The position numbers were made by a program, and so were the translations under genes. Below the pieces are notes generated by a model. It saw only the letters and a program-made list of their open reading frames with translations, ran no database searches and had not been told where the DNA came from. Shown here piece by piece: positions 17,712 to 58,489 of a DNA stretch of 64,000 bases. Where the stretch lies: positions 33,644-97,643 of the forward strand of contig JBBINH010000002.1 in NCBI GenBank assembly GCA_037443945.1, given 5' to 3'. The DNA comes from Caldilineales bacterium. GTDB lineage: Bacteria; Chloroflexota; Anaerolineae; J102. Within the stretch, counting starts at the first letter, position 1, and the number at the start of each line of letters is the position of its first letter.

Positions 17712-17882
17712 GAGCTCTTCCTATTCCGTGCTTCGTTATGGCCATTATAAACCATGGCTATCGGAGGCGAAAGGTGGCGGATCGGGGACGACGGGACCCG
17801 ATCGAGACCTTCGTCTCCCTGCACCCACGGGGCTGTGGCAAACGACATCGAATGTCACCTGCGTTTTTCTCTTGTTCTGACC

Positions 17883-19808
17883 ATGCTCGTTCGTTTTCTT
17901 CTCCCCGGACTCTTAGCCCTGGTTCTGACGGCGACCGGCGCCGGCGGGGGCGGTGCTGTTGAACGCTCATGGCCTCCCGATCCGACCAGCCCGGCCTACT
18001 GGCATGACGCCTTGCGCCAGGCCCATGCTCCCGGCGAGGTATTGGTGCATTGGCGGACATCCTCGTGGCAGGCCCAGGGCCAACCCGCCGCTTTGGCCAC
18101 GGCGGAGCTGCTGAGCTTCATGCCCGAGCTGGGCTTGGCCCACTATCGGATTCAGGGCGATCTGGCCACCGCTCTGGCCGCTCTCAACCGGGATCCGGCC
18201 GTGGTGTTCGCCGAACCCAACTACCGGGTGTGGCCGGCTTTTGAGCCGGATGATCCCTACTATCGCCAATACGCTGCTAACGATTCCCTCCCCACCGGTG
18301 GTTATCTCAATCGTCTGAACATGGCCGCGGCCTGGGATATCACCCGTGGGCATCCGGCCATCCTTGTCGCCGTCATTGACAGCGGCATTGATCTCGAGCA
18401 CGAAGACATTCGGGCCAACCTGTGGCAGAATCCCGGCGAAGTGCCTGCCAACGGTCGTGATGACGATGGCAACGGTTTCGTAGACGATGTGTACGGTTGG
18501 AATTTTGCCGCCGACTCGCCCGATGTGGATGACTGGTTGGGCCACGGCAGTCATGTTGCCGGCATCATCGCGGCCCGCATCAACAACGGCCTCGGCATCG
18601 CCGGCGTGGCGCCCAAAACCCAGGTCATGGCCGTGGGCGTTTTTGCCCCGCCGGGGTACGGGACCTTCGCCGATGAGATTCGCGCCATCCTCTATGCCAC
18701 CGACCAGGGTGCCGATGTCATCAACCTGAGCCTGGGCAGCACGGCCTACAGCCGTGGCGAGGAAATGGCCGTCGACTACGCCGTGCGACGGGGGGTGGTG
18801 GTCGTGGCTGCTGCCGGGAACAACGGTCGCACAGTCTACCACTGGCCGGCCGCCCATCCGGCGGCCATTGCGGTGACGGCGACCACGGCCCGCGATGCCA
18901 TCGCCGGGTTTTCCAATCGCGGGGATTTTGTCGATCTGGCGGCGCCGGGGGTGGCCATCTGGTCGTTGCGACGGGGCGGCGGCTATCTGGCCATGAGCGG
19001 GACGAGCATGGCTACGCCCCATGTGGCCGGCGTGGCGGCGTTGATCCTGGCCCACAACCCCACCCTGACACCGGCCGAAGTCCGCGCCATCCTGGAGACG
19101 ACGGCCACCGACCTGGGCGTCCTCGGCCGGGACGAGGTCTTCGGCTACGGCCGCGTCGATGCTCTGGCCGCCTTGCGGGCCACGCCGCCCTATACCGGCA
19201 CCGTGCTCCCCGATCTCCCCGACTGGCTGCGCGCCCGGACCTGGCCACCTCTGTGCCGCGAACTCGTGCGCGAGGGCGATTTCGAGACCGACCCCCCGGT
19301 AGTCTGGCAGCTCGACGGCGCCGCTACCCTGACGACCACGGTGGCCTTATCGGGGACGCGTTCTCTGTTCCTGGGCGGCGAGCCGGGCCGGCAGGCCTCG
19401 GCACGGCAGACCTTCAGCGTGCCCTCCGACCTTCGGGCAGCGACCCTCGCCTTCGGCCTGCGCTTGGAAAACGAGGACTACGACCTGGGCAGCGACCCCC
19501 AATGGCCCGGCCGCGACCGGCTGAGCGTCTGGCTGCGCACATCCACGGGCGAAGCTCTTCTGGAGCTGTTACGGGCCGGGAATGCCGATTACAACCTGGC
19601 GGCAGGCTTGCCGTGGGATCGCTATCTCCATGTGCTGAACGAAGAGGAAATCGCCCTGCTGGCCGCCCAGGGTCAGGTGCAGATCGAGTTCACGGCGATG
19701 AACGACACCGACCCGCAGCCAACCCGGTTTTATATTGACGACGTGCGCCTGTGCGGAAGCCACGCACCGGTCTATTTGCCTTTGCTCCGGCGTCCCTCCC
19801 TGCCATGA
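17883..19808 (+). CDS. secreted subtilisin-like serine protease (peptidase S8) with C-terminal extension ending YLPLLRRPSLP
   Basis: Signal peptide MLVRFLLPGLLALVLTA. The catalytic triad motifs are present: D (VIDSGID), H (GHGSHVAG) and S (GTSMATPHVAG). There is a roughly 200-aa C-terminal domain. Confidence 0.9.
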   Translation: MLVRFLLPGLLALVLTATGAGGGGAVERSWPPDPTSPAYWHDALRQAHAPGEVLVHWRTSSWQAQGQPAALATAELLSFMPELGLAHYRIQGDLATALAALNRDPAVVFAEPNYRVWPAFEPDDPYYRQYAANDSLPTGGYLNRLNMAAAWDITRGHPAILVAVIDSGIDLEHEDIRANLWQNPGEVPANGRDDDGNGFVDDVYGWNFAADSPDVDDWLGHGSHVAGIIAARINNGLGIAGVAPKTQVMAVGVFAPPGYGTFADEIRAILYATDQGADVINLSLGSTAYSRGEEMAVDYAVRRGVVVVAAAGNNGRTVYHWPAAHPAAIAVTATTARDAIAGFSNRGDFVDLAAPGVAIWSLRRGGGYLAMSGTSMATPHVAGVAALILAHNPTLTPAEVRAILETTATDLGVLGRDEVFGYGRVDALAALRATPPYTGTVLPDLPDWLRARTWPPLCRELVREGDFETDPPVVWQLDGAATLTTTVALSGTRSLFLGGEPGRQASARQTFSVPSDLRAATLAFGLRLENEDYDLGSDPQWPGRDRLSVWLRTSTGEALLELLRAGNADYNLAAGLPWDRYLHVLNEEEIALLAAQGQVQIEFTAMNDTDPQPTRFYIDDVRLCGSHAPVYLPLLRRPSLP

Positions 19809-24499: not shown

Positions 24500-24950
24500 A
24501 AGGATCGATTTCCAGGGGAGGAGCAGATCAACAAGAGAGGGGCAAGGGATTTCTCGTCGGGTTATGGGAGTGGGCGACACTGCAAGCATAACACAAAACC
24601 GACCCGATCCCCGGAACGCACAGGGCGCGGTCGCGCCGAGGCGCTTTTTCTGTCGCAATCGGTCCGGTGTCGAAGTCCGAGGGAGCGCCTCGCAGGCCGA
24701 ACCGTGCGGATGCTTCTGTCGAGAAGACGGTTAGAAGCGACGACGCCTTTCATCCGGTGGGTTAAGGCTTGGCTCTCTTCTGTTCTCTGTGATACAAGTG
24801 CCCTGCTTCCTGCCGTGCGCAGGGAAAACGGCCTTCCCTCAGGAATCCCACGACCGCTTTGAACAGCCTGACCCCAACCGGACTCCGGGTCTACCGTCTC
24901 ACCCGCAAGGCCGGAGGTCGGGGCGTTCTTTCGTATGACGAGGATCATGT

Positions 24951-33246: not shown

Positions 33247-35721
33247 ATGATGAGTAAGAAGGGGTTCCTTCTTCTCAGCACGGCGTTTATTGTCGTGACT
33301 TTGATGGCTTTTGCCGTGGCGGCTGACGAGCCGGTGCTTCCGCCGGTGGAGCCGACCACGGTCGCACCGGCCCAACCCGAAGCAAGTGATTATGCCCCTC
33401 CGCCGGCAGGACAGCCGGGCTTTTATATCGAGAACGGTCGTTTCAACATCTTGCAGCCGGCCCAGGCCTATTATGCGACCGGGTCGTTCGGTTTTTGGGC
33501 CTGGTCTTCCCTCAATCCAGCGCGAGGGAGTTACAACTGGGAGATCCTCGATACCTGGGTGGCCGACAGCATCGCTGCCGGCTATGAAACCGTCGGCATT
33601 GCCCTCAAAACCTATACCGGTCGTTTTGTGGGATGCCAGTTTCAGGGCATCGATATGACCCCGGCCTGGGTGCTGGCCGGTCAGGACGGTATCCGTGGCA
33701 ACGCCGACGATCCTGTCCTGTTGTCAAGTGTGCCGGATCGTCGTGATTGCGATAGGGATGGCAATCCCGATAACGGTCCCTGGTACCTGATCCAGTACAA
33801 CCACCCTTACTACAAAAGCAACTACATTGCCTTCATCAACGCGTTGGCCGACCATTTGTTCAGCGCGCCTTATCGCGACCGGGTGGCCTGGGTGGCCATC
33901 GGCACGGGCAAGGATGGTGAGAACAAACCGGCCGATGATGACGACGATCCCACCTTGCTGGCCAACGGTCTTAGCACCGAGGCCTGGATCTTGCATGTCC
34001 AGGAGATTATCGAGACGTATCGCGCAGCGTTTTACGATGGGTCGGGATTCCCGCGCATTCAACTCGTCTTGCAGAATGCGCCCTTTTATCGCAGCCCCAT
34101 CGAGCGGCGCGACCTGGCCAATTACGCGGCCACGCGGCGGATTGGGCTTTCCATCAACAACATTACGTCCGATTTCAACTCGGTTGAATCATGCGCCAGT
34201 CCCAATTCGAACACGCGTTGCACGGGCATCTACGATCAGGCGCGGCAATACAACAGCATTGCTCCGATCATGCTGGAAAGCTACGCGTACATGATGCCCA
34301 CACCCAACGAGTTTTACTGGTCCATGGCGCGCGCGCTGGATGTCAGGGCCGACTACATCCGCCTTTCCAGTTTCTGGAATACCCAGACCAATCCCGACAA
34401 TTTGACCACGGCCGAATGGGCCAGCCGTTACATCGGGACGGGCTTCGCCGAAGGCCAGCGCCGACCGCCCAGCGTGTGGTCGCGCATGCGAGAGCATAAA
34501 GACCCCTGCTACCTGGGTTACGCCTTCATCAATCCCTGTAACTTCTGGCCGACCAACGGCAACTACGAGTTTTATCTCACCCAGCTCCACCTGCCCCAGT
34601 TCGGCGGTGTGACCATCCCCGTCACCGATGACGATCGCATCCGCATCACCGGCTGGGATCACAGCGAATCGAACGTGGTTGACAAGCGCTGGCACTACAA
34701 CACGAGTCCCTTTGACCAGAAATTGCGCGATGCCGGTCTTTTCGCCCTGACCCCCAGCGGTGTCCAGAATCAGGTCGATCCGGGGTGGGTGGCACGGCGT
34801 AGCGATCAGGCCACGAATAACACCAAGTTCATTTTCGACGCCGCCGATCGCTACTTTGCCCGCTCGCAGCCGCCGGCCGAAAGCACCTTCAAGGTCGTCA
34901 TCACCGTGACCTATCTGGATGTGGGCAACGACCAGTGGTTGCTGGTCTACGATTCGACGACAGGGCCCAGGGCGGCCACGGTGTACGCCATCAACGATTG
35001 GAATGTGCGCCGTGGATTGGCCGTGGACGACTTTTTACCGGTAGATGGCCGTGTCCTGCCTCCGGTCAATTACGTCCAGAAGACCGGAACGAATCGCTGG
35101 AAGGTGGCGACCTTCGTCATCGAGGACGGCAACTTTAACAACCTGGTGCTCAACGAGGCCCGTGCCGACTTTTACATCGAATCCCGCAGTCCCAGCGGCC
35201 AGAAGGACGGCGATGAGTACATCCACCACGTGGATGTGCGCAAGGTGGACGAATTTATCGAAGTAACACCGACGCCGACGCCGACCACGGCGCCGACGGC
35301 CACGCCCACGCCGACGGCCACACCGATGCCGACGGCCACGCCCACGCCTACCGCCACCCCGACGCCCACACCCTCCACCGGCAGCATCGTCGGCAAGGTC
35401 TATTACGATCGCAACCAGAACCGTCAGCCCGATCCCGGCGAGGGTTTGGCCGGCGGTGTGTTGGTCCTGAGCGGTCCTACCCATGCGCAGACCACCTCGG
35501 CGGTAGACGGCTCGTATGGCTTCCATGCCTTGCCGCCCGGTAGCTACGTGCTACGTTCGACGCCGCCGGCAGGCTACAACCGGGCCGATCCCGACACGGT
35601 GGCGCTTTTCGTCCAGGCCAATACCATCTTGACCTGGGACTTTGCCCACGAACCTCTACCGGATACGACGCCTTCGCCTCCCGCAGGCGAGCCCCTCTAT
35701 CTGCCGCTGTTACGGCGTTAG
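33247..35721 (+). CDS. secreted GH42-like TIM-barrel (glycoside-hydrolase-like) protein with Thr/Pro linker and C-terminal SdrD B-like domain; ends in YLPLLRR
   Basis: Signal peptide MMSKKGFLLLSTAFIVVTLMAFAVA. 'WAWSSLNPARGSYNWEILDTWV' resembles the GH42/GH35 N-terminal barrel signature (W..EP..G.Y.W..LD). It is paralogous to the N-terminal ~600 aa of the giant protein. A TPTPTP linker and 'VYYDRNQNRQPDPGE...GSYGF' SdrD-B domain follow. Confidence 0.75.
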   Translation: MMSKKGFLLLSTAFIVVTLMAFAVAADEPVLPPVEPTTVAPAQPEASDYAPPPAGQPGFYIENGRFNILQPAQAYYATGSFGFWAWSSLNPARGSYNWEILDTWVADSIAAGYETVGIALKTYTGRFVGCQFQGIDMTPAWVLAGQDGIRGNADDPVLLSSVPDRRDCDRDGNPDNGPWYLIQYNHPYYKSNYIAFINALADHLFSAPYRDRVAWVAIGTGKDGENKPADDDDDPTLLANGLSTEAWILHVQEIIETYRAAFYDGSGFPRIQLVLQNAPFYRSPIERRDLANYAATRRIGLSINNITSDFNSVESCASPNSNTRCTGIYDQARQYNSIAPIMLESYAYMMPTPNEFYWSMARALDVRADYIRLSSFWNTQTNPDNLTTAEWASRYIGTGFAEGQRRPPSVWSRMREHKDPCYLGYAFINPCNFWPTNGNYEFYLTQLHLPQFGGVTIPVTDDDRIRITGWDHSESNVVDKRWHYNTSPFDQKLRDAGLFALTPSGVQNQVDPGWVARRSDQATNNTKFIFDAADRYFARSQPPAESTFKVVITVTYLDVGNDQWLLVYDSTTGPRAATVYAINDWNVRRGLAVDDFLPVDGRVLPPVNYVQKTGTNRWKVATFVIEDGNFNNLVLNEARADFYIESRSPSGQKDGDEYIHHVDVRKVDEFIEVTPTPTPTTAPTATPTPTATPMPTATPTPTATPTPTPSTGSIVGKVYYDRNQNRQPDPGEGLAGGVLVLSGPTHAQTTSAVDGSYGFHALPPGSYVLRSTPPAGYNRADPDTVALFVQANTILTWDFAHEPLPDTTPSPPAGEPLYLPLLRR
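35266..35375 (+). repeat. Thr/Pro-linker coding low-complexity repeat (ACNCCN)n
   Basis: Reiterated ACG CCG ACS CCS units encode [37 protein letters not shown]. Confidence 0.8.
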
Positions 35722-35774
35722 CCCGGCGGCAAGGCATTGACCACCCGCCTTCATTCTCGTCCGTTCCTGCCCTT

Positions 35775-37085
35775 ATGGTTGGGCAGGAACGGAACGATTC
35801 CGGTTTCCCTGTGCCCGGTTTGTGGCGCTTCGTGTTGCTCCTCGTTAGTTTGGCCATCTGCGGTGGCAGCGTGCTCTTCCTCCCGGTCGCTGCCCATCCG
35901 GCTCGTTCACCGGTTGGCATGGCCGTCTCCACCGAGGCGACACCCATCCCCCGTGTTTATTGTGGGGGTGTCTATCGTGGCGATACGAGCACCGGCACGG
36001 CTCAGATCGATCGCTATGCCTGTCGACCCGATTGGCCCGAAACCGGACCGGAACATTTCTATCGCCTGTCCATCCCGACGACACAATCGCTGACCCTGGT
36101 CCTGAGTCATCCCCCCGGTCTGGATCTGGATGTGTTCTTGCTGGAGCATGAACAGCTCGATCGTTGCCACGCTGCCGATGCCACGCTGGCATTGGCCGCC
36201 TTAGCACCGGGTCCACATCGCATTGTCGTGGATGGTTTTGCCGACAGTCAGGGACCTTATACGCTTGCCGTGCTCTGTGAAGGGCCACCCTTGGCCACAC
36301 CAACCCCGACCGATACGCCGCTGCCGACGGCTACCCCGACGCCGACTCTCGTCCTGACGGCTACGCCGACCCCCACCCGCACGCCCACGCGGCCGCGCCT
36401 CAGCTACGATGCCTTTTTCCCGGCCCAGCGCCGCCGCTATCCCCCGCCTACGCCGCTGCCGACTACCCTTATCCTCCAGCCCGGTCGGCAAGGCTACGAC
36501 GGACTCGCCGATAGCTACCTCAGCGCTTGGGCTATTACCGAGAATTATGCTAATGTAGACCGGCTTGCACTTCGGCAGTCCGACATCATGGCTCCGGTCT
36601 TACGCTTCCGGCTTGATGGTCTGCCTGCCGATGCCCGCATTGTCGAGGCACGTTTGAGCCTGTGGGCCTTAGCCCGCAGTAACGACAACCCGGCCACGGC
36701 CGGCCTCTATCCCCTTCATCGTCCCTGGCAGGTGGATGAAGTCACCTGGCAGCAGGCGGCCAACGGTGTCCCGTGGGCCCAACCCGGCGCCAACGGCGTA
36801 CCCGTCGACCGGGGAGGCGTGCCTCTGGCCGTGCAGACGGTGACGGAGACGGGCCGCTGGTATGAGTGGGACCTGACCCCGCTTGTCCAGGCCTGGGTTG
36901 CCGACCCTACAACCAATCATGGCATGATCCTCAAAGCTCTGGCCATACCCCGCGTGCTCTACACTTTTGCGGCAGCCGAATATCACAACCCGGCTGCCCG
37001 ACCTCGGTTGCTCATCCGTTACTGGACTCCCACCCCATCCCACCAGGCCTCAACCGTGCCGTTTACGCCATCGCCGTCCCCCTGA
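35775..37085 (+). CDS. secreted protein with PPC (pre-peptidase C-terminal)-like domain, TP linker and DNRLRE-like C-terminal domain
   Basis: Hydrophobic N-terminus. 'FYRLSIP...LDLDVFLLEHEQ...GPYTLAV' resembles the PPC domain. The C-terminal 'WYEWDLTPLVQAWVADPTTNHGMIL' matches the DNRLRE-type module also present in the giant protein. Confidence 0.65.
   Translation: MVGQERNDSGFPVPGLWRFVLLLVSLAICGGSVLFLPVAAHPARSPVGMAVSTEATPIPRVYCGGVYRGDTSTGTAQIDRYACRPDWPETGPEHFYRLSIPTTQSLTLVLSHPPGLDLDVFLLEHEQLDRCHAADATLALAALAPGPHRIVVDGFADSQGPYTLAVLCEGPPLATPTPTDTPLPTATPTPTLVLTATPTPTRTPTRPRLSYDAFFPAQRRRYPPPTPLPTTLILQPGRQGYDGLADSYLSAWAITENYANVDRLALRQSDIMAPVLRFRLDGLPADARIVEARLSLWALARSNDNPATAGLYPLHRPWQVDEVTWQQAANGVPWAQPGANGVPVDRGGVPLAVQTVTETGRWYEWDLTPLVQAWVADPTTNHGMILKALAIPRVLYTFAAAEYHNPAARPRLLIRYWTPTPSHQASTVPFTPSPSP
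36295..36395 (+). repeat. Thr/Pro-linker coding low-complexity repeat
   Basis: Encodes [34 protein letters not shown]. Confidence 0.8.
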
Positions 37086-37101
37086 CCAGGAACGAAGCAC
37101 C

Positions 37102-37854
37102 ATGATCATCAGCAAACCTCAGATCCTCGGTTCCAAATTGCGGTCTACTGTGGAGGTTTCTCCTTCCTCAACGACAACCCAGGTTGTTCCCTTTGTCCCA
37201 CCGGCGCCGACGTTGACCGGCTACCGTCTGGCCAAGCGAACCCTGGACGTTGTTGTGGCCTTGTTGGCGCTTATCCTGCTTTCGCCCCTGTTTATCTTGA
37301 TCTGTTTGGCCATCAAACTCGAAGACGGCGGCCCTGCCATTATCAAACAGCGTCGCGTGGGCTTGGGAGGCCGGCCCTTTGCGTTTTACAAGTTCCGCTC
37401 GATGACGTTGGGGGTCGATCATACCCTAGCCCATCGAGCCTTTGCGCAACAGGTTATCCGCGGGGAGATTACCCAGGGGCCTCGTAGCAACGGCGGCGTG
37501 CTCAAACCGACCGGCGATGGTCGTGTGATCACCCGCGTGGGCCGCATTTTGCGCAAGACGAGTCTGGACGAGCTGCCGCAATTGTTCAACGTTCTGATGG
37601 GTACCATGAGTTTGGTGGGGCCGCGGCCCTCGATGGATTACGAGGCCGAAGCTTACTTCGATTGGTATCTGCCCCGGCTGTCGGTTTTGCCCGGGATTAC
37701 GGGGCTGGCTCAGATCAACGGCCGCAGCAGCATCCCCTTCCCCGAAATTGTGCGTTGGGATCTGCGGTATATCGAACAACGCTCGTTCTGGCTCGATCTG
37801 AAAATCTTGCTTAAGACCTTGCCGGTGGTTGTGGGGATGCGGAACACGGGGTGA
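37102..37854 (+). CDS. monotopic polyprenyl-phosphate phosphoglycosyltransferase (bacterial sugar transferase, PglC/WbaP C-terminal-domain type)
   Basis: A single N-terminal membrane helix ([22 protein letters not shown]) is present. 'KFRSM', '[22 protein letters not shown]' and '[12 protein letters not shown]' are hallmark PF02397 motifs. Confidence 0.85.
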
Positions 37855-37876
37855 AGGGCTTTCTGCGGGTACGGCG

Positions 37877-38629
37877 ATGGCGCTGAACCCGGACGATCTG
37901 GCCTATTTTGCCCGCGGGGCGCGGGCGAACCCGCGTTTCTGGGCCCGATTCGGGGGCATGCCCGATCTGAAGGGAAAACGGGTCCTCGATATCGGCTGCG
38001 GACACGGGAGTTTGTGCGTGGATATGGCCGCGGCCGGCGCCGAGCAGGTCGTGGGGTTGGATCTGAACTGTCGTCTGATTGCCTTTGCCGAGGCCTACGT
38101 CGAACGATTTCGGCCGGAACTGCGGTCGCGGCTGCGATTTGCCTGTCAGGATCTGCGCGACTATCCGCCGATGCTGTTCGACCTTATCGTCTCCAAAGAT
38201 ACGTTTGAGCATGTCCTCGATCTGGAGGGCTTGCTGGCCGAAATCCACCGACGGTTGGTGCCCGGAGGGCGGTTGTATGCCGGCTTCGGACCGCTCTACT
38301 ACAGTCCCTTTGGCGATCACGATGCCGTGCGCCTGGGCGTGCGGTTGCCTTGGGCGCACGTGCTCATGGGCGACCGCCGGGTCATTGCCCATGTCAATCG
38401 GCGACGGCGGGTCCCGATCCAGACGATCCGGGAATTGGGCCTCAATCAGCTTCGCCTGCGCGACTACCGCCGCCTTTTTGCGGCCTGCGGCTTACAGACC
38501 GTAGCCTGGTGGACAAACCGCACCGACCATCCTGTCGGCAAAATGTTGGCCGTGCTCGCCCACGTACCCGGTCTGGCCGATTATATGACCTTCAACGTCT
38601 ACTGCATCCTCCAAAAACGCGGCGCCTGA
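37877..38629 (+). CDS. class I SAM-dependent methyltransferase
   Basis: 'VLDIGCGHGSLCVDMAAAGA' is motif I. An acidic residue after beta2 (GLDLN) and motif II (LIVSKDTFEHV) are present. Confidence 0.75.
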   Translation: MALNPDDLAYFARGARANPRFWARFGGMPDLKGKRVLDIGCGHGSLCVDMAAAGAEQVVGLDLNCRLIAFAEAYVERFRPELRSRLRFACQDLRDYPPMLFDLIVSKDTFEHVLDLEGLLAEIHRRLVPGGRLYAGFGPLYYSPFGDHDAVRLGVRLPWAHVLMGDRRVIAHVNRRRRVPIQTIRELGLNQLRLRDYRRLFAACGLQTVAWWTNRTDHPVGKMLAVLAHVPGLADYMTFNVYCILQKRGA

Positions 38630-38737
38630 GCTTGGTCGTGTCGGCACCGCCGTCGGGAAGCGAGTCCCGGTTGTTTTGCGGCAGGGCTTTGGCTTCGTCC
38701 ATGACCGTGGTCTATAATCCGGTAACCGGCGCCAACG

Positions 38738-41700
38738 TTGCGTCTGTTCCTGGGTATCCGTCCGATGTCCCCCTCTCGTTCGTCGCGACGCCTGGTTTTC
38801 CTTTTCCTTGCCATCGGGTTGATCGTGGTGGTGATCGGTGGGGTTGGCCTGCTTTGGTGGCGGTGGTGGCGCCCGCCATCCCCTGTCCCCTCACCCACCG
38901 CTATCGTAACGACCACACCGACGCCGGCTATGCCATCCACACCGACGCCGACCCTAACGCCCACGCCGACGCCGGTAGCGACCGAAGTTGCTGCTCAGGT
39001 GGTGTTTGGCTCGCTGCAGCCGGGGGTGTACGAGGCCTATGATCATCTCAGTCGCGAGCCCGAACTGCGCGGGGGCACCCTGGAATTTCGTTGGAACCAG
39101 GTCGAACCTCTCCAGAACGGCTATAACTGGTCGGTCCTGGACCGGGCCTTGGCGCAACTTCCGACCGGACGCCGCGCCATCCTGCGCCTGATGGTGCGTT
39201 GCAACGAGGGCAACAACGAGGTCTGCACGCCGGATTGGGCGCTGCGCGACGAGTTCCGTCCCATCGTTGCCGCCGTGCCCCCGGCTTGTGGTCTAAGCGC
39301 AAGCACGCGAAAGCACTTGAACTATCTGGACGAGGGTGTCCAGCGCGAGCTTTTGGAGCTGATCCGCCTGTTGGGCCAACGGTACAATGCCGATCCGCGG
39401 GTGACGGCCGTGGAAGTCGGCGTGGGTTATAACGGTGAATCGTCGCCGTGGCCGTTGACCACGCTCTGCGACAAGGAGGCCCAACGCAGCGCTTACGAGG
39501 CCGCCTACGGCCCTACAGGACCGCGACAATGGGCGGATTGGCATCTCCGCCAGCTAGAGGCCTATACGGCCGCTTTCCCGGATCAGACGTTGCTCACCAT
39601 CATCACCGGGGATTACGCCGAGGCCGAGCGCTGGCGGGTGGTGCAGTGGGCCGTGGAGCACGGGGTGGGGCTGATGGTGACCTCGCTGGTGGCCGACTAT
39701 CATAGCAATCGCGGCAAAAGCGGCGATTTTTGTTTTTGGGGTGCCATCACGCGGCCGAGAGCAGCTCCCAGCGCCACCCTGGCCAATGCCTACCTCACCC
39801 AATGGGCGGCCTTGGACCACGTGTGGGAACAGGTCCCTATCGGTTTTGAGTTCAATAACGCCTCAAGCTTGATCGGCCTCGGTATCGAGGCCCACACCTG
39901 GTGGTCGGCCCTTAATGCTCTGGACAAACATGCCGATATCATCGAACCGTTTCGGGCCAACACCCGCCAAACTGCGGTTTGGCGTTTTGTCAATGCCTAC
40001 ATCGGCCAGACGGCCGGCACCACACCGGCGGTCTGGATTGTTTTCCGCAGCAGCAATCCCGCTCTGCCTGACGCCCAATGCGGCGATCTGTTCGATTACT
40101 CGTTTTTCCTCATCCATGAATTGGAGAGGCTGGGGTACGATACCCTCCTGCAGCAACAAAGCGTGCGTCGGGCCGATGCCTTGACACGACGTTTCCAGAT
40201 CGGCCCGGCTACCGATTGGCGCGGGGCTTATGCTCGTGAAACGGCCGACGGATGGCCGGTTTTCAACCTCGATGTCGATGATACGTTCAGCAGGCGCCTC
40301 GGCGGTGCGGTTGAGGTCGTCGTCACCTATTTCGATCATGCCAACGGCGGGCGTTGGGCGCTCGATTACGATAGCCTCACCGGTCCGCGTCGGGCCGGTG
40401 AAGTCGTGCTGACGGGGACCAACACCTGGCGAGAGCAGGTTTTCCGGTTGAACGATGTCCGCTTCGGCAACGGTTTGCCCAAAATGCAGGCCGATAGCCG
40501 TCGGACGGGTTTTGATCTGCGTCTGGACCGGGTGGACGGAACGAACGATAGCTTCCATCGGGTCCTGGTGCGGCCTGTGGGGACGATTCCCCTGATGAGC
40601 CCCACACCACGACCAGGCCGGACACCAACGCCTTCTGCCCCCACACCGACGCCGCAGTCGCCTTTCTACTTTCGCTTCCGACAGGGGATCGACGAGTACC
40701 GAGGCGTGCGCGATACGTTTATCGAGGCCTTTCAGCCCGACGTTGCGCGTGCCAACGAGCCGCTGTTGGGCGTGCGACCTCTCGACCGAGCTGCTGCCTT
40801 GCTGTATTTCGACCTCGGTCGTCTTCCTCCGGATGCCCTTGTCCATCGGGCCTATCTCTATCTGACGCGGCTGGCGCCGGCCGATCAAACCGTCACCCTG
40901 ACCCTCTATCGGTTGTTGCGGTCCTGGAGCGAGATGGCGACCTTCCGCCAGGCCGATACCGACAGCCCCTGGGAGCAGCCGGGTGCTCTCGGCCTGAGCG
41001 ATGCCGCTTCCAACCCCGTGGCCGGGCCGCTACCGGTTGCCCCCGGCGCCGTGGCCCGCTTCGATGTGACCGCCCTGGTCCAGAGTTGGATCGCCGATCC
41101 GATGCTCAATCAGGGCCTGATCGTGCGGGGTGACAGCAACGTTGCGCGACGATACGAGTTTGCCAGCAGCGAAAACCCTACACCGGTTTGGCGGCCGTAT
41201 CTGGAAATCCTTCTAGAAACGCCGACGCCCACGCCAACCCGCACGCCCACCCCGACGCCCACCCCGACTGCCACGCCTACGGCCACAGCCACGCGTACGC
41301 CGACCTCGACCCGCACGCCCACATCCACCCCGACCCCCACCCCCAGTCCCACCGCTACGCCGACGCCGACCCCCACACCGGCCGTACGCCTGCGCGAGGA
41401 GACGGTCTTGCGTCGCGGGCCTGGCTTCAATTTCGATGGACTCGCCACGGCAGCTGCCGACACCGTCCTTCCGCTGCTGGGACGCAGCGCCGACGGCGAT
41501 TGGCTGGCCGTCTGTTGCGTAGGAACCGATCCGGCCTGGGTACCCGGCATGAATGCCGAGGTGTTGCACATCACAACGGAGGCTTTGCCCATCATTAGCT
41601 CGCCACCGACGCCCACACCGACGCCTACGCATACACCGACCCCCACACCCTCGCCGACACCGTCACCGACGGCCACCGCAACGGCGACGCCCACGCCCAC

Positions 41701-43714
41701 GCCGACAGCCACCCCTACGCCCACGCCCACACCCACCGCCACGATAACCCCCACGCCGACGGCTGTGGTACCGGCCTGTCTGCCGTTTCGCCTGTTCGTG
41801 CTCGATATCGGCACCCAACCCAAAGGCGTGGCCGTGGGTAGCCTGGCCGATGGTACCGTCGTGACCGGCATCGGTCTGTACGAAAGCGCTGCTTTGGCTC
41901 TGGTCGTCGGCGATGAGGTCCGCATGATACCCACCGACGGTCGGGGCGCCAACGGTGTGGCGTTTGCCAACGGGCGGTTTTACATGGTCCATCGCGATAG
42001 CCGCAGCGTCAGCATCATCGACCCGGTGGCAGGCCGACAGGTGGGCCGTCTTCCGACGGGTCGGGAACCGTGGGGCGCGGCCGCCACTGCCGACAGGCTC
42101 TATGTGGCCGATTTTGCCGACGACACGGTGAGCGTCTTTGACCTGAATGACGAACAGCTCGTGGTCAGGGTGCCGGTCGCTCCGCTACCGGCCTTTGTGG
42201 CGGCAGCAGCCGATCGGGCGTTCGTGGCCCATCTCGGCGGTCAGATCAGTGTCATCGGTCCGGAGGGCGAGGTGCTTGCCGTTTTCGGACCCCTTATCGG
42301 CGGCGATGCGTTCGGTCTGGCCTACGACGCCGTCCACGATCGGCTGTGGGCGGGAAGCCGTCAGGCGCGCAGCCTGTTGGCCCTCGACGCCAGAACGGGC
42401 GTTGTTCAGGCCCGCTATCTTCTCCCGGCCGCACCGTATGCCGTGGCCTATAATCCGGCGACCGATCAGGTGTTGGCCGTGGATGCCGTTCACAATCGGC
42501 TGATGATCGTCCAGGCAGCCGACGGCGAGCTGCTAGGCCTCTTGCCGCTCAGCACCCAGGGTAGCGATCACGGCGGCCAGGGGCTGGCCGTATCCGCCAA
42601 CCGGATTTTCGTCCCCGCTTTTGCAGCAGGAGCGCTGGACGGTTTCGACGGTGGACCGTGTGTCACACCGACGCCAACGCCGACATCCACTCCTACCCCC
42701 ACGCGCACGCCGACCCCCACACGCACCCCGCGCGTGCGCACGCCGACCCCCACACGCACATCGACTCCGACACCGACCATCACGCCTACGGTTACACCGA
42801 CGGCCACACCCACGCCGACATCGACGCCAACCGTCACAGCGACGCCGACGGCCACGTTTACGCCGAGCCCCACACCCACGCCGACGCCGGCCACGCTTAT
42901 CGCCAAGATTCAAATCGTCTGGCCTCACGGCGGTGCTGCCGTGACCGAGGCCGAGCGGGCGAACATCACCGTCCATCTCTACGAAGACGAGGCTCTGAAC
43001 CCGGTGGTGTGTGACTTCGCCGCCACGGTGCGGTTATGGGCGGCGCGCAACAATGAACCGGCACGTCCCGTTGCCGTCGGTCAGCCTCGTCTGACCGAGC
43101 AGGACGGTCGGCGCTTTACCGTCTGGGATTTCAACGACATCGATGTCGCTGCAGCCCGCGATCCCCGCACTAAACTTCACTTCTTCGTGACCGTGGATGG
43201 CTTCGAGACGCGACACAACGTCTGGACCCATGGCGCCGATGCTCGTACCCTGGCACCTGTCCAGGATATCCCCACCGCCGTGTTGACGACGCTGCCCTCT
43301 GCCCTTGACGCACGCATCGAGATCGTCTGGCCTCACGGTGGCCGAGCGGTAAGCGAAGCTCGACTGGCCAATATCACCGTCTATCTCTTCCGCCGGGATA
43401 CCCTGGAAGCCCTGGGGCCTTCGGTGCGGCCGTTGCCGACGGTCCGTCTGCACAGGGCGCACAACAACGAGCCGGACGGCGGCCGCGCGGCGGCGCCGAT
43501 CGGTATCCCCCGGACCATCACGGCCCAGGGTCGGACCTGGCTGGTCTGGGATTTCAACGATGTGGATGTGGCTGCGGCCAACGATCCGCAGAATCGTATC
43601 TATTTCTGGGTGGATACGGATGAAGTGCCGACGGCGACGAACATCTGGACCCATGGCGTGCTCGGCCTCACGCGGGCGCCGATACAGGATGTGCCGGCCC
43701 GCAGTTGTCGGTGA
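38738..43714 (+). CDS. giant secreted multidomain protein (1658 aa): GH42-like TIM barrel + beta-sandwich + DNRLRE-like domain + TP linkers + YVTN-type beta-propeller + two tandem C-terminal ~135-aa repeats
   Basis: Signal anchor ([23 protein letters not shown]). '[24 protein letters not shown]' is the barrel signature. It is a paralogue of the 33247..35721 N-terminal region (shared ...YDS(L/T)TGPR... block). '[22 protein letters not shown]' is the DNRLRE-like module. About 7 YVTN-like ~40-aa repeats are present (e.g. [28 protein letters not shown]). The C-terminal duplicated unit is 'I(E/Q)IVWPHGG...ANITV(H/Y)L...WDFND(I/V)DVAAA.DP...(F/Y)F(F/W)V..D...T..N(V/I)WTHG'. The real start may be ATG 38765 (MSPSRSS...). 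Confidence 0.8.
38911..38985 (+). repeat. Thr/Pro-linker coding low-complexity repeat
   Basis: Encodes [25 protein letters not shown]. Confidence 0.7.
41218..41384 (+). repeat. Thr/Pro-linker coding low-complexity repeat (ACGCCSACSCCC)n
   Basis: Encodes [54 protein letters not shown]. Confidence 0.85.
41601..41762 (+). repeat. Thr/Pro-linker coding low-complexity repeat
   Basis: Encodes [53 protein letters not shown]. Confidence 0.85.
42663..42897 (+). repeat. Thr/Pro-linker coding low-complexity repeat (longest, ~235 nt)
   Basis: Encodes [77 protein letters not shown]. Confidence 0.85.
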
Positions 43715-43720: not shown

Positions 43721-44908
43721 ATGAGAAGCCAATCCTCCCCAAGCGGGACTGCCGTTTCATCCCTGCCGGCCCGGGCCTCGTGGTGGCGAGCCGAAGGGCT
43801 TTATCTCGCCGGGGTGTCGGTGGCGGCGGCCCTGTTCGTTTTTCTGTACGGTCGCATCGATTACACGGTCGAACCGTATGCCTCGGCCGATCTGTATCAC
43901 TACCGGCAGATAGCCCAGATGGCACCGAGTCTGCCTGTCGGGGTGCAACGCCCCTTTGCTTTTCGTCTCCTGGGGCCCTATTTGGCCGGCCTCTTGCCGT
44001 GGCCCGATGTCACGGCCTTCTATTGGCTCACCGTAGCGACGGCGTTGGTGTTGGCCGTGGCGACCTATGGGTTCTTACGCAGCCATGCCATTCGCCCGGG
44101 AATAGCCGCCCTGACCACGTTCTTTTTTCTGAGCAATCGCTATCTGTTCGGTTTCAACATCTGGGACTATTTTCAGATCAACGATTTGCTGATCCTGCTT
44201 TGTCTCGTGGGGCTGTTTTGGGCCCTGGAACGGCAACGCTACGGCGTGTTTGCCGTTGTGCTGGCCATAGCCGTGTTGGTTCGGGAGACGGCGTTGTTGC
44301 CGATCCCCGTCGCCTTGGTCTATCTGTGGGAACAGGGCCGTCTGCGGACCGATGTCGTTCGTCTACTGGTGGCCTGTTTGCCGGGATTGGCCTTGTTCGG
44401 GCTGGTGCGCACCATCATCGAGCCGGTCGGCGGTCTGGGTCTGGTGGCGGCGGGATTGCGCTACGCGCCCAAGCTGGCCCAACTGGAACCCCTTTTTCGC
44501 TTGGTGATCAATCCTTTCATCCCCTTCGTTTCGTTGCCGTTGCTTTTCTGGCGCAGTAGCCTGGCCTTTTTCCGCCGACGGCGATATCTGCTCGTGTATC
44601 TGGTCCTTGTTTTCATCAGCACCCTTTTCGGCAGCAACAACGAACGACTGATGGCCCCGGCCTTCCTCGTGTTCTATCTGCTTATGGCCGTGCTCATCCA
44701 GCACCACCTGGCCGAGCGTCTGTGGCCGACGGCGCTATTGCCGGTAGGTGCCGCGTTGACCAGCCTCAGCCACGAGTGGGCGCGCTTTCCCCTACCCGAT
44801 CGCCGCCTCACCATCGGGCTGTCTCTTGGCGCCTTGCTTGTCATCACTCTGGTCGTCTTGCCGACGGCCGTGCATCAGGGTTTCGGAGGGCGAGATGGAG
44901 ACGATTGA
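43721..44908 (+). CDS. polytopic integral membrane protein (about 10-11 TM), possible GT-C-like/DUF2029-type membrane glycosyltransferase
   Basis: Highly hydrophobic, with an aromatic-rich periplasmic-loop pattern. It starts 7 nt after the giant gene and overlaps the downstream gene by 14 nt. I found no soluble catalytic-domain motifs. Confidence 0.6.
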   Translation: MRSQSSPSGTAVSSLPARASWWRAEGLYLAGVSVAAALFVFLYGRIDYTVEPYASADLYHYRQIAQMAPSLPVGVQRPFAFRLLGPYLAGLLPWPDVTAFYWLTVATALVLAVATYGFLRSHAIRPGIAALTTFFFLSNRYLFGFNIWDYFQINDLLILLCLVGLFWALERQRYGVFAVVLAIAVLVRETALLPIPVALVYLWEQGRLRTDVVRLLVACLPGLALFGLVRTIIEPVGGLGLVAAGLRYAPKLAQLEPLFRLVINPFIPFVSLPLLFWRSSLAFFRRRRYLLVYLVLVFISTLFGSNNERLMAPAFLVFYLLMAVLIQHHLAERLWPTALLPVGAALTSLSHEWARFPLPDRRLTIGLSLGALLVITLVVLPTAVHQGFGGRDGDD

Positions 44909-46190
44909 CTTGCTCGTTACCCATATCGGTCAGTTGGTCACCCCACCGGCCGCTCCGGCGGCCCTGCGGGGAGCGGCCATGGCCCGGCTCGACACCGTGG
45001 TCGACGCTGCCCTCGCCGTTCATCGCGGCCGGGTTGTCGCCGTTGGCCCTCGTCTCGCCCTGGAGACGGCTTATCAACCGGCGCAGGTACTCGATGCGGG
45101 CGGAGCCTGTGTTACGCCCGGTTTGGTGGATCCGCATACCCATGCCGTTTGGGCAGGCGAACGTCGGGGAGAATTCGAACAGCGCCTTGCCGGTGCTTCC
45201 TATATGGACATTCTGGCCGCCGGAGGCGGTATCCTCGCTACCGTCGCGGCTACCCGTCGTGCCGATCGCGAGCAGATTGTGGCCGAAACCCTTCCGCGTC
45301 TGCAGACTATGCTTGCCCATGGCACCACCACGGCCGAGATCAAGACCGGTTATGGTCTGACTCTGGAGGACGAGCGCAAGCTCCTCGACGCCATCGCCGT
45401 GCTCGATGCCCGTCAGCCCATGGACCTGGTGCCCACCTTTCTCGGTGCCCATGCCGTACCGCCGGAGTTCCGACACAACCCCGAGGCCTATGTGGATCGG
45501 ATTGTCGAGGAGATGTTGCCCGAGCTCGCCTATCTGGTCTACACCGTCACCGGCGAAGACGGATCGTCCTACCGCCAGCGGGCCGTCCATTTTTGCGATG
45601 TCTTTTGTGAGCGTGGGGTCTTCGATCTGGCGCAAACCCGGCGCATCCTGACCGCAGCCAGGGGCCACGGCCTCGATCTCAAGCTCCATGTGGATGAGTT
45701 TGAACCCATGGGTGGGGTCAGTCTGGCCGTGGAATTGGGGGCGATTTCGGTCGACCACCTCGTGCGTACCGGCGAGGAGGAACTGGCACGACTGGCCGCC
45801 TCCAATACCATCGGTGTGGTCTTGCCCGGCACGCCTTTCGGCCTGGGCCATACCCATTTTGCCCCGGCGCGACGGCTGATCGACTTGGGCGGCGCCGTGG
45901 CCCTGGCCACCGATCTGAATCCCGGTACCACATGGTGCGAGTCAATGCCGATGATGATGGCACTGGCGACCCGCTATATGCGCTTGACTCCGGCCGAGGC
46001 ACTCACGGCAGCCACCCTCAATGCCGCCCACGCCATCGGTCTGGGTCGTTTTATCGGCGCCTTGGCCCCCGGCTATCAGGCCGATTTTGTTCTTTGGGAT
46101 ACCGACGATTATCGTGATTTGACCTATCGCTATGGAGTCAATCTGGTCAAAAGCGTCTATAAACGCGGAAAAGAGGTAATAAAGCGTTAA
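44895..46190 (+). CDS. hutI: imidazolonepropionase-family amidohydrolase (HutI-like)
   Basis: 'PGLVDPHTHAVWAGERRGEFEQRLAGASYMDILAAGGGILATV' closely follows the HutI metal-binding/N-terminal signature. Downstream His/Asp ligands are present (HVDEF, DLNPG). The start is set at METIDLLVTH. Confidence 0.8.
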   Translation: METIDLLVTHIGQLVTPPAAPAALRGAAMARLDTVVDAALAVHRGRVVAVGPRLALETAYQPAQVLDAGGACVTPGLVDPHTHAVWAGERRGEFEQRLAGASYMDILAAGGGILATVAATRRADREQIVAETLPRLQTMLAHGTTTAEIKTGYGLTLEDERKLLDAIAVLDARQPMDLVPTFLGAHAVPPEFRHNPEAYVDRIVEEMLPELAYLVYTVTGEDGSSYRQRAVHFCDVFCERGVFDLAQTRRILTAARGHGLDLKLHVDEFEPMGGVSLAVELGAISVDHLVRTGEEELARLAASNTIGVVLPGTPFGLGHTHFAPARRLIDLGGAVALATDLNPGTTWCESMPMMMALATRYMRLTPAEALTAATLNAAHAIGLGRFIGALAPGYQADFVLWDTDDYRDLTYRYGVNLVKSVYKRGKEVIKR

Positions 46191-56249: not shown

Positions 56250-57292
56250 CGCTCTGCGATGTCAGCCTGGTCATTGTTACCTGGAATGTAAGCACGGCGC
56301 TCACCCGATGTCTGGCGGCGTTGCCGGCAGCCTGGGATAGCGGTGACGAACTTCCGTTCCGGCACTGGGAACTGATTATCGTGGATAATGCCTCGACCGA
56401 TGGCACGGCCGCTGCCGTGTCGCAACAGGCGATGGCCTTGCTGGCGACGAGAACCGGTCGGCCCCCTCGCCAGGTGCGCTTGCTGGTCAATGCTCACAAT
56501 CGTCTGTACACGGCGGCGGCTAACCAGGGCCTGGATGCGGCTCAGGGGCGTTATCGCCTCGTGCTCAATCCGGATACCATCCCTACCCCCGGCAGCCTGG
56601 CGCGGTTGGTAGCGCTGGCCGAGGCCCATCCCCGCATCGGATTGGTCGGTCCGCGCATCCTAACGACCGAAGGCTGCGATGATCTGCGGACAGGACGTCA
56701 TTATCCCACCCCGTGGTCGGAATTCAGCGACTGGTTGGGATTGACGCGACGCTTTCCCGGTTCACGACTATGGGCTGCTAACCTGCGTCCTGATGTCCCC
56801 CGCACCCGCACAGGCCCGGTTCCGGTTCTTTCGGGGGCGTGCTTGCTTTTCTCGGCTTCGCTCCCTGCGCATTTGCAGCGTTTTGACCCTGATTATCCCA
56901 TGTACGGCGAGGATCTCGACCTTTGTCGGCGTGTCCAGGCGGCCGGTTATGAGACCTGGCTGGCAGCCGAAGCCGTTATCCAACATATCGGCGGCCTGAG
57001 CAGTCGGCAGGCACGGGTCGACGCGGCCTTGCTGGCTGCGGATGGGGTCAATCGCTACTTTCGACGCTGGCATGGCCTCCAGGCAGCACAACGCCATCGT
57101 CTGGGGATGGCCGTTGTAGCCGCTGTTAAGTGGTCGGTCTTCAGCCTGTTGAGTTGGTTCGGCCTGGAGAAACAACCCGACCTGCAGCGTCGTCTTCATG
57201 CCGGATTATGGCGTTGGGCCTGGAGTGGCCGTCTGGACAGAACGGGGACAACGGCTGCCGAAGTTCACACCGTGGTTTTGTCATGCTCATGA
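56246..57292 (+). CDS. glycosyltransferase family 2
   Basis: 'VSLVIVTWN', 'IIVDNASTDGT' and the DxD region are present. It has an ATGA overlap with the flippase gene. Confidence 0.85.
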   Translation: MTLCDVSLVIVTWNVSTALTRCLAALPAAWDSGDELPFRHWELIIVDNASTDGTAAAVSQQAMALLATRTGRPPRQVRLLVNAHNRLYTAAANQGLDAAQGRYRLVLNPDTIPTPGSLARLVALAEAHPRIGLVGPRILTTEGCDDLRTGRHYPTPWSEFSDWLGLTRRFPGSRLWAANLRPDVPRTRTGPVPVLSGACLLFSASLPAHLQRFDPDYPMYGEDLDLCRRVQAAGYETWLAAEAVIQHIGGLSSRQARVDAALLAADGVNRYFRRWHGLQAAQRHRLGMAVVAAVKWSVFSLLSWFGLEKQPDLQRRLHAGLWRWAWSGRLDRTGTTAAEVHTVVLSCS

Positions 57293-58488: not shown

Positions 58489-58489
58489 G

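Follow-up and report, generated by a model that had tools for sequence, protein, structure and literature searches.

Two large proteins encoded close together in a 64,000-nucleotide stretch of Caldilineales DNA (hereafter the window) raise the question of whether their N-terminal regions are copies of one module and, if so, what such a module would do outside the cell. Protein A (33247..35721) is the translation of an 824-aa open reading frame; protein B (38738..43714) comprises 1658 aa when read from a TTG codon, with an ATG at 38765 as an alternative start. A, B, the genes between them and the gene directly after B lie on the forward (+) strand.

Two diverged copies of one module

The first-pass annotation had proposed from two pairs of short motifs that A and B both contain a TIM barrel and, after it, a beta-sandwich, and we recovered all four motif strings in the two proteins. 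A direct BLASTP comparison of A with B was significant for the beta-sandwich block only (E 6e-7, 29% over 135 columns) and placed the N-terminal block at E 0.028, so that the pairwise evidence by itself is thin. When 30 A-type sequences were compared with 3 B-type sequences in hhalign, the profiles matched with a probability of 99.9% (E 2.6e-31, 465 columns, 26% identity) in a collinear alignment of module residues 27-627 of A with 27-543 of B. Judged from these profiles, the similarity of A and B is far beyond chance and spans the entire module, and the two are anciently diverged paralogues with about 25% identity. The AlphaFold models and fold searches agree with the profile comparison on the homology of the N-terminal regions, and they bear out the barrel and sandwich architecture. 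The window contains only these two copies, and the similarity between them reaches further than originally drawn, into a DNRLRE domain.

Protein A, which has a GGAGG Shine-Dalgarno sequence 10 nt 5' of its ATG, consists of a signal peptide, the barrel, the beta-sandwich, a Pro/Thr linker, an Ig-like SdrD_B domain and a short C-terminal tag. The signal peptide (MMSKKGFLLLSTAFIVVTLMAFAVA; 33247..33318) is of the Sec type on inspection, and a similar N-terminal pattern was seen by eye in the majority of the full-length homologues. The (beta/alpha)8 barrel covers module residues about 20-350 (33457..34449), and the beta-sandwich, delimited from the secondary structure of the model, covers residues about 355-620 (34462..35259) and includes a VTYLD..W.L.YD block. 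Pfam recognized the SdrD_B domain and a weak GH42 match in protein A, and nothing else. The tag, PLYLPLLRR (35692..35718), recurs in A-type homologues and forms the extreme C-terminus of nearly all that are full-length. A subtilase of the same window (17754..19808) also terminates in a PLYLPLLRR-type motif.

Protein B begins with a transmembrane anchor, recognized by inspection, and continues through the barrel, the sandwich, a DNRLRE domain, a small domain, a beta-propeller and two C-terminal repeats, with Pro/Thr linkers between them. Its (beta/alpha)8 barrel (module residues about 10-345; 39017..40024) was placed by AlphaFold, profile comparison and Pfam, and its beta-sandwich (40025..40582), with a VTYFD..W.L.YD block, by BLASTP, profile comparison and the model. 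The AlphaFold model of B (pLDDT 77, pTM 0.83) has the same order of strands and helices as that of A. A DNRLRE/CBM96-like domain is fused within B at 40679..41209 (NCBIfam DNRLRE, 6.4e-17). The propeller-like region (41735..42640) gave only weak NHL, PQQ_2 and YncE matches and is 50-52% conserved in B orthologues. Self-comparison revealed the two tandem repeats of ~130 aa each at the C-terminus (42893..43711), which are 52% identical to one another (E 3e-39) and have no Pfam match. A full-length orthologue of B with 49% identity is present in L001, and further orthologues in L003 and L010. A word-indexed homologue search with module B returned just 3 proteins and missed true orthologues that were later recovered by synteny; the apparent rarity of B-type proteins was rejected as a search artefact.

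An invariant glutamate pair in a divergent barrel

The first-pass annotation had seen no obvious catalytic acid/base pair and had suggested that the modules may be carbohydrate-binding rather than hydrolytic. We found two glutamates that are kept in A and B and are invariant in 59 diverse homologues, and this pair leaves the binding-only interpretation unsupported. The first, E174 of A (codon 33919..33921, in GTGKDGE), is a candidate general acid and aligns with E150 of B (39437..39439, in GVGYNGE); in the AlphaFold model of A it lies within a GxGxxGE loop after strand 162-167, which is strand 4 of the barrel. The second, E293 of A (34276..34278, in PIMLESY), is a candidate nucleophile or general base and aligns with E287 of B (39848..39850, in VPIGFEF); the models place it inside the seventh barrel strand, 290-295 in A and 284-288 in B. 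The codons of E174, E293 and E150 were checked against the DNA. A (beta/alpha)8 barrel whose strands 4 and 7 bear conserved carboxylates agrees with the pattern of clan GH-A, apart from a shift of the strand-4 residue by 4 positions. The pair was probably overlooked because the strand-4 glutamate stands 4 residues past the canonical 'NE' site, which is occupied by an invariant glycine.

E174 and E293 are likewise invariant in an alignment of 43 diverse sequences, and so are G28, W35, P88, G170, W196 and G249. Both glutamates were retained in all 15 further locus-encoded members that we aligned, most of them linked to a transferase gene. The conserved residues map to the C-terminal strand ends in the model of A, where the modelled barrel has a pocket bearing both glutamates. 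The sole homologue without one of them, P0080, is also without the other. P0080 is encoded in a flagellar operon.

A comparison with known enzyme families returned partial likenesses. Pfam GH42 (PF02449) scored A at 19.0 bits and B at 21.6 bits against a cutoff of 21, in each case over HMM positions of about 27-141 of 376, and ten distant members scored 13-28 bits, with every match partial; GH42 thus matches neither A nor B in full length, and nothing in Pfam covers the whole module. The W-x-x-x-E-P..G.Y.W..D block is the portion that resembles GH42 and GH35. In a profile-to-PDB alignment, the glutamate of the GH42 'SNEYG' motif falls on the invariant glycine of our family, whose own glutamate is 4 residues downstream, and the Asn-Glu dipeptide of GH42 at the end of strand 4 is absent. 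E293 of A and E287 of B lie in the seventh strand of the models and, by this position, would correspond to the GH42 nucleophile. The GH42 structures (PDB 6y2k, 8ibs, 1kwg) share about 11-13% identity with the module, and A, B and the 43 family members examined showed neither the trimerisation domain (42M) nor the 42C domain of GH42. The GH42 enzymes characterised so far are, as far as is known, cytoplasmic, in contrast to A and B, which carry export signals.

The relation to GH35, whose structures are beta-galactosidases or exo-glucosaminidases (PDB 4d1i/5jaw, 8faa, 5gsm), was seen with Foldseek (E 3e-10, 10% identity, TM 0.37-0.44) and as a partial profile match (E 2.6e-6). Pfam GH35 gave no match at E <= 1 or at E <= 10, and the acid position of GH35 differs from that of the family as the GH42 position does. 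Pfam GH14 gave no match at E <= 10. We also rejected GH14 kinship by sequence, as hhalign against the verified soybean beta-amylase returned a probability of 3.5% over 61 N-terminal columns. The GH14 structures (PDB 3voc, 1b90, 1wdp) are 11% identical to the module and are without the beta-sandwich and the accessory domains, and the family itself presents no evidence of a starch substrate. The GxGxxGE loop of our family is patterned like the soybean beta-amylase loop that holds the proven catalytic Glu186 (the beta-amylase sequences include chains with the E186Q and E380Q mutations), and we treat the GH14 likeness as a structural and motif-level lead only. The barrel appears distantly related to the GH42/GH35 beta-galactosidases and the GH14 beta-amylases.

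Direct sequence searches of the PDB with A and B found nothing relevant, and the link to GH42/GH35 structures was reached only with a barrel-restricted family profile. No Pfam or NCBIfam model spans the module, the marginal partial GH42 match being the exception, and we found no description of it in the literature on DNRLRE, CBM96 and new GH families in Anaerolineae. The family is nevertheless large: an exhaustive search recovered at least 782 cluster representatives (50% identity clusters) at E <= 1e-30. Those with an organism name belong to the Chloroflexota, class Anaerolineae, including Caldilineales; all members with a source name are from Chloroflexota and are called 'hypothetical' or are named after an accessory domain. 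Among the 78 homologues from the search with protein A, all source-named ones are 'hypothetical'. Annotation pipelines thus overlook the family wholly, and none of the names examined refers to the module. Several paralogues occur per genome, and the fused accessory domains include CBM9, malectin, dockerin, cohesin and CBM96, the last of which is an alginate-binding module (PMC9971899). Together, the fold, the invariant pair and the position beside the gene that starts surface glycan synthesis suggest that A and B are probably sugar-chain-cutting enzymes of an undescribed family, with catalysis, substrate and stereochemical mechanism inferred.

The surface-glycan neighbourhood and its readings

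Three genes separate A from B. The first (35775..37085) encodes a DNRLRE/CBM96/disaggregatase-repeat protein of 436 aa (Pfam CBM96 7e-11, Disaggr_repeat 2.5e-11; NCBIfam DNRLRE 1.5e-23) that is 37% identical to the domain within B (tblastn, E 4e-20), so that A and this gene as a pair match what is in B a single fused stretch, its N-terminal 824 residues. The second (36967..37854) encodes a polyprenyl-phosphate glycosyl-1-phosphate transferase (Pfam Bac_transf 1.5e-61; TIGR03025 1.4e-77); the reading frame as listed overlaps the preceding gene, and the true start is therefore probably further downstream. The third (37829..38629) encodes a SAM-dependent methyltransferase (Pfam Methyltransf_11 2.6e-17) that is syntenic in L001, L003, L010, L027 and L054. 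Directly after B lies a gene for a polytopic membrane protein (43721..44908) with many hydrophobic spans in its translation and a weak NCBIfam match, below the cutoff, to the AZOBR_p60025 'cell surface glycopolymer formation' family (2.4e-7). Its homologues (52-53% identity) sit in the module-containing operon of L065-L067, highlighting the possibility that this protein is part of the same glycopolymer system. B is always followed by an amidohydrolase. We weighed a role for it as a glycan deacetylase and rejected this, since it is imidazolonepropionase HutI (464 bits; cutoff 298); it is a boundary gene. The nearest glycosyltransferases and exporters of the window lie at 54.7-62 kb, a distance of about 10 kb, and the rest of a biosynthesis cluster is not adjacent.

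The block of A, DNRLRE protein, transferase, methyltransferase and B was found again in three other genomes (L001, L003 and L010). Of the 39 assessable related loci, 19 have a transferase gene on the same strand no more than 6 kb downstream, and 26 have a DNRLRE-type match downstream; the transferase linkage is present in 7 of the 10 loci below 45% identity. The triad of module, DNRLRE protein and transferase is retained at identities that range from 69% to 27%, and in more than one order. The module gene of L003, L004, L005 and the Ca. Amarolinea locus L067 stands in or beside an operon of GT4 glycosyltransferases, Wzy/Wzx/Wzz, sugar-modifying enzymes and a polysaccharide deacetylase. Genes for a GFO oxidoreductase, a DegT aminotransferase and a hexapeptide acetyltransferase also occur near the module in related loci, and from them a glycan that contains acetamido sugars or uronic acid would be predicted. 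The module is thus encoded in or next to polysaccharide biosynthesis loci in several genomes, and its export to the polymer compartment can be read from the signal peptide of A, the transmembrane anchor of B and the signal peptides of most full-length homologues.

Hydrolases encoded in exopolysaccharide biosynthesis loci are known from other systems: PslG/GH39, PelA/GH166, BcsZ/GH8, Sph3/GH135 and Ega3/GH114. The functional likeness is that an exported glycosidase-type protein is encoded beside polymer genes, the arrangement that is found here and in L001, L003, L004, L005 and L067. We are inclined, with somewhat more belief than doubt, to regard A and B as exported glycoside hydrolases of an undescribed family that act on the cell's own surface glycopolymer. 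The transferase would initiate a lipid-linked glycan at the cytoplasmic face, which glycosyltransferases and the methyltransferase would elongate and decorate before export. Outside, the sandwich and the DNRLRE/CBM96 domain would let the secreted A and the membrane-anchored B hold the polymer; this last domain is supplied by a separate gene after A and is fused in B. With their glutamate pair the two proteins would then cut or remodel it, and a surface or sheath polysaccharide would be trimmed or released, in the manner of the biosynthesis-locus hydrolases of other exopolysaccharide systems.

We find it unlikely that A and B are instead feeding enzymes that degrade foreign polysaccharides from the environment, with an incidental link to the transferase. 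CBM9, malectin, dockerin and cohesin domains are typical of degradative enzymes, the paralogues are several per genome, half of the loci are without a nearby transferase, and GH77 and sugar-phosphate enzymes are encoded upstream in the window. Neither a sugar-uptake transporter nor a regulator lies beside A or B, however, the upstream ABC system being of the NMT1/THI5 type, and a chance linkage would not have lasted through the divergence and across the orders over which the triad is kept. The loci without a transferase, together with the paralogues, suggest that some members of the family may act otherwise, for example on foreign polysaccharide.

Protein O-glycosylation, by which the transferase, methyltransferase and membrane protein would decorate the Pro/Thr-rich linkers of A and B and of comparable surface proteins, seems to us quite improbable; A and B would then be mainly structural components of a surface layer or sheath. 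Long TPTPTP linkers are present in A, B, several homologues and neighbouring surface proteins, the C-terminal region of A resembles an S-layer glycoprotein family (NCBIfam 9.7e-13, far below the cutoff), and the 43721..44908 protein is itself similar to a 'glycopolymer formation' family. Such a role would leave unexplained why glutamates at barrel strand ends are invariant in 59 sequences and why the module is recurrently fused to polysaccharide-binding domains, and the Wzy/Wzx/Wzz genes in the operons of L003-L005 point to a polymer and not to short protein glycans. That the barrels are catalytically dead binding modules, as the first-pass annotation held, is very improbable: the clan GH-A Asn-Glu dipeptide is missing after strand 4 and P0080 shows that non-catalytic derivatives exist, but both glutamates are kept in A and B, are invariant across the family together with the surrounding glycines and aromatics, and include one in a loop that shares its pattern with the Glu186 loop of soybean beta-amylase.

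A copy on a phage-like contig and the reach of the family

Wastewater, sediments and hot springs harbour abundant filamentous Anaerolineae and Caldilineae, among them Ca. Amarolinea, which causes sludge bulking, and almost nothing is known of how these bacteria build and remodel their surface layer or sheath. A family whose genes are linked to the one initiating surface glycan synthesis provides a concrete and testable handle on this biology, and the module may represent a new family of carbohydrate-active enzymes in which the acid is unusually placed. If the substrate is a sheath or exopolysaccharide, the enzymes could serve against filamentous bulking or biofilms and could mark phage receptors in Chloroflexota.

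A more elaborate proposal, which we advance tentatively and with some doubt, is that of a new GH family with a GH42/35-like barrel and a GH14-style acid loop, dedicated with the DNRLRE/CBM96 proteins to processing a glycopolymer initiated by the polyprenyl-phosphate transferase, borrowed by phages and possibly routed by a tag. The polymer may be a surface or sheath glycopolymer of filamentous Anaerolineae, and phages of these bacteria may have borrowed the module as a depolymerase. As to routing, the C-termini highlight the possibility that members of the family are directed by a previously unnoticed tag, [LIVF]-[YF]-[LMV]-P-[LMIV]-[LIM]-[RQ].

The phage lead comes from P0079, which of all homologues of the B module is the closest (49%). 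It is encoded on a phage-like contig directly after tape-measure (phrog_3779, 6e-11) and tail (phrog_1887, 1.5e-10) genes. The position after the tail genes is the usual site of a glycan-cleaving tail enzyme. P0079 resembles phage tail depolymerases in this placement and differs from them in carrying a lipoprotein-type signal peptide, an unusual feature in a virion protein. No further copies came up when viral contigs were scanned twice, with a B-type alignment and with P0079, and the phage placement comes from one contig. The viral structure matches were to generic GH5 and DUF4832 barrels.

Proteins A and B and the module they share

Protein A (33247..35721, plus strand; 824 aa) has a GGAGG 10 nt 5' of its ATG and begins with a typical signal peptide, MMSKKGFLLLSTAFIVVTLMAFAVA, while protein B (38738..43714, plus strand; 1658 aa counted from a TTG, with an alternative ATG start at 38765) has a single hydrophobic anchor at its N-terminus, both features as read from the sequence. 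Between them lie a 436-aa DNRLRE/CBM96/disaggregatase-repeat protein (35775..37085; the DNRLRE protein), a small polyprenyl-phosphate glycosyl-1-phosphate transferase (PGT; 36967..37854; Bac_transf 1.5e-61, TIGR03025 1.4e-77) and a SAM-dependent methyltransferase (37829..38629). The true PGT start is probably downstream of 36967; the ORF as listed shares its first 119 nt (36967-37085) with the 3' part of the DNRLRE gene, its Pfam match begins only at residue 90, and its orthologues measure 249-256 aa. Directly after B is a polytopic membrane protein (43721..44908), for which Pfam gives no match and NCBIfam a weak one, to the AZOBR_p60025 'cell surface glycopolymer formation' family, and the imidazolonepropionase HutI (44826..46190) closes the block.

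The first-pass annotation had proposed that A and B carry paralogous modules, and all four peptide strings that it quoted were found in the two proteins. Direct BLASTP of A against B gave a significant match for the beta-sandwich block alone (E 6e-7), with E 0.028 for the N-terminal motif region. We collected 78 A-type homologues; the word-indexed search for module B returned three relatives, a count that understates the B-type subfamily since the search missed public full-length orthologues at 45-55% identity. Comparison of a profile of 30 A-type sequences with one of 3 B-type sequences confirmed homology, aligning 465 columns at 26% identity, collinear over the entire module (probability 99.9%, E 2.6e-31). 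These are the only two copies in the window, and their similarity extends past the interval originally assigned to the pair: the DNRLRE domain of 35775..37085 matches 40679..41209 inside B (37% identity, E 4e-20), so that the duplicated unit consists of module plus DNRLRE domain, spread over two genes in the case of A and fused in B.

Fold and invariant glutamates

AlphaFold models built from family alignments were confident for module A (pLDDT 93.2, pTM 0.93) and fair for module B (pLDDT 77, pTM 0.83), and in both, eight strands alternating with helices precede an all-beta domain. The nearest PDB entries by Foldseek were GH35 beta-galactosidases (E 3e-10, 10% identity, TM 0.37-0.44). Pfam GH42 gave partial, marginal matches (19.0 bits for A and 21.6 for B against a cutoff of 21) that covered only HMM positions about 27-141 of 376, and no NCBIfam model matched the module. 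A profile built from the barrels alone of 16 diverse members detected GH42 (E 8.6e-8) and GH35 (2.6e-6) structures, with alignments restricted to strands 1-4. GH14 did not match the family even at E <= 10, and hhalign of the family profile against soybean beta-amylase aligned 61 N-terminal columns at 3.5% probability; the soybean sequence used is identical to PDB chain 1bfn but for one residue, and E186Q and E380Q mutant chains of this enzyme are recorded in the PDB. By the sequence criteria tested, the family belongs to none of GH42, GH35 and GH14.

The initial reading that neither barrel retains a catalytic acid/base pair is contradicted by the family alignments. Eight residues were invariant in both the 59- and the 43-sequence alignment (G28, W35, P88, G170, E174, W196, G249 and E293 in module-A numbering), joined by W307, W360 and R364 in the latter. 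E174 (GTGKDGE) lies in the loop directly after the fourth strand (162-167) of the module A model and corresponds to E150 of B (GVGYNGE); E293 (PIMLESY) lies within the seventh strand (290-295) and corresponds to E287 of B (PIGFEF). Clan GH-A enzymes bear their acid/base and nucleophile on strands 4 and 7, and the remaining conserved residues likewise map to the C-terminal ends of strands, where a TIM-barrel active site would be expected. The only homologue without one of the glutamates (P0080) has lost both, to T and R, and both were kept in 15/15 further locus-encoded members, mostly PGT-linked and including that of Ca. Amarolinea aalborgensis; joint loss and joint retention support a functional pair. 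We infer that the barrels are probably catalytically competent glycosidase-type domains.

Distribution and gene neighborhood

Searched exhaustively by profile, 1.84 billion cluster representatives yielded 782 proteins at E <= 1e-30 and 3948 at 1e-10, the latter number owed partly to the accessory C-terminal region. The named members examined were all 'hypothetical protein' or called after an accessory domain, and all came from Anaerolineae, Caldilineales or Chloroflexota metagenome-assembled genomes. Scanning GTDB species, each represented by a single genome, with the A-type alignment gave 69 loci, and 68 were in Chloroflexota, often as two to three paralogues per genome; the exception, in a Jatrophihabitantaceae genome, aligned over a segment of the sandwich region alone (query residues 462-595, 28% identity, E 4e-4). 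Among 43 members, the accessory domains fused to the module were CBM96 (11), CBM9 (8), disaggregatase repeats (8), SdrD_B (7), dockerin (4), malectin (2) and cohesin (2). CBM96 is defined as an alginate-specific binding module (PMC9971899), which hints at acidic polysaccharide ligands.

The block of A, DNRLRE protein, PGT, methyltransferase, B and HutI was also found in three other genomes (L001, L003, L010), where the B orthologues are 45-55% identical (49% over full length in L001) and the block lacks the membrane protein 43721..44908. Genes 52-53% identical to that membrane protein occur alongside the module in operons of Ca. Amarolinea and two further Anaerolineae (L065-L067), whose modules are themselves only 27-28% identical. 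In L003 the genes ahead of the block encode Wzy_C, CapK_C, GT4, a hexapeptide acetyltransferase, a GFO oxidoreductase, epimerases and Alg14/Alg13-type transferases. The L004 module, 28% identical to A, is preceded by GT4s, Alg14/13, a hexapeptide acetyltransferase, a DegT aminotransferase and a GFO oxidoreductase, and is followed by three CBM96/SdrD_B proteins and a PGT; downstream of the L005 module are a methyltransferase, a Wzx-type flippase, GT4s and Wzz. The Ca. Amarolinea operon (L067) runs from GT4 through the membrane protein (52%), a polysaccharide deacetylase, FemAB/GNAT, a hexapeptide acetyltransferase, a GFO oxidoreductase and a methyltransferase to the module protein, a DNRLRE protein and a PGT, and then RecJ. 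Downstream sequence of 5 kb or more was available for 39 loci; of these, 19 had a PGT on the same strand within 6 kb downstream, usually at 650-2350 bp, and 26 had a DNRLRE match; the PGT was present in 7/10 loci below 45% identity. Because the linkage is maintained from 69% to 27% identity, it is unlikely to be accidental.

Proposed role and further observations

From the homology, fold, invariant residues, export signals and neighborhood, we lean toward the view that A and B are exported glycoside-hydrolase-type enzymes of an undescribed family acting on the cell's own PGT-initiated glycopolymer. The cell would make this polymer from a lipid-linked precursor begun by the PGT, binding to it would fall to the sandwich and DNRLRE/CBM96 domains, and A and B would trim, release or remodel a surface layer or sheath. 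A and B would then play a part like that of hydrolases (PslG, PelA, BcsZ and the like) from exopolysaccharide loci elsewhere. The CBM9 and dockerin fusions and the paralogues without a PGT would also suit degradation of foreign polysaccharide, which we consider rather unlikely given the conserved module-DNRLRE-PGT triad and the absence of sugar-uptake genes. Glycosylation of A and B, as surface proteins, on their own Pro/Thr linkers by the products of neighboring genes is improbable and would leave the invariant glutamates unexplained. That the barrels merely bind carbohydrate, as the first-pass annotation suggested, is very improbable against the residue conservation. The module is a real and well-defined feature and a candidate new glycoside hydrolase family, although nothing categorically new; its fold and general chemistry are familiar. 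The family itself is large, lacks annotation and is linked to the surface biology of filamentous Chloroflexota, about which little is known.

P0080 (L006, 5129-7771) is a B-type member whose gene belongs to a flagellar operon (FliG, FliH, FliI, FliJ, a lytic transglycosylase and a rod protein), and it appears to be a non-catalytic derivative that another machine has co-opted. The closest homologue of module B, P0079 (L002, 10001-12526; 49%), keeps both glutamates and lies on a 35-kb contig with every gene on one strand. Directly before it come genes for a tape-measure protein (phrog_3779, 6e-11) and a tail protein (phrog_1887, 1.5e-10) and a 541-aa ORF that has no annotation; further PHROG matches lie nearby. 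Receptor-degrading tail enzymes are typically encoded just after such genes. P0079 is a weak candidate for a phage enzyme of this kind, since the lead comes from one contig, its signal peptide is lipoprotein-type (LLLASC) and two viral-contig scans gave no further copies. The contig also codes for a glycosyltransferase-like protein, a methyltransferase, a Laminin_G_3 protein and a CBM9 protein.

Protein A ends in GEPLYLPLLRR (PLYLPLLRR at 35692-35718) and an unrelated secreted subtilase (17754..19808) in HAPVYLPLLRRPSLP (19764-19787). The pattern [LIVF][YF][LMV]P[LMIV][LIM][RQW] falls within the last ~10 residues of nearly all full-length A-type homologues (P0001-P0073), with no transmembrane helix after it and no match to NCBIfam sorting-signal models, and may serve as an undescribed C-terminal tag by which secreted proteins of Chloroflexota are sorted or anchored. 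Protein B ends in two tandem repeats of ~130 aa (42893-43270 and 43310-43711; motif I-x-I-V-W-P-H-G-G...ANIT...VWDFND.DVAAA...W.HG), without a Pfam match, 52% identical to each other (E 3e-39) and 63-67% conserved in orthologues.

A second polysaccharide gene set lies ~10 kb downstream (54708-62108), with a Wzx/MurJ-like flippase (54708-56249), GT4 (57130-58488), GT2 (58490-59536), a Wzm-like permease (59901-60803) and a Wzt ATPase with a Wzt_C domain (60822-62108). A large fusion at 21986-24658 joins a sugar-1-phosphate nucleotidyltransferase, hexapeptide repeats and a full phosphoglucomutase/phosphomannomutase (PGM/PMM), near a separate PGM/PMM (24951-26402) and a GH77 4-alpha-glucanotransferase (27124-28659).
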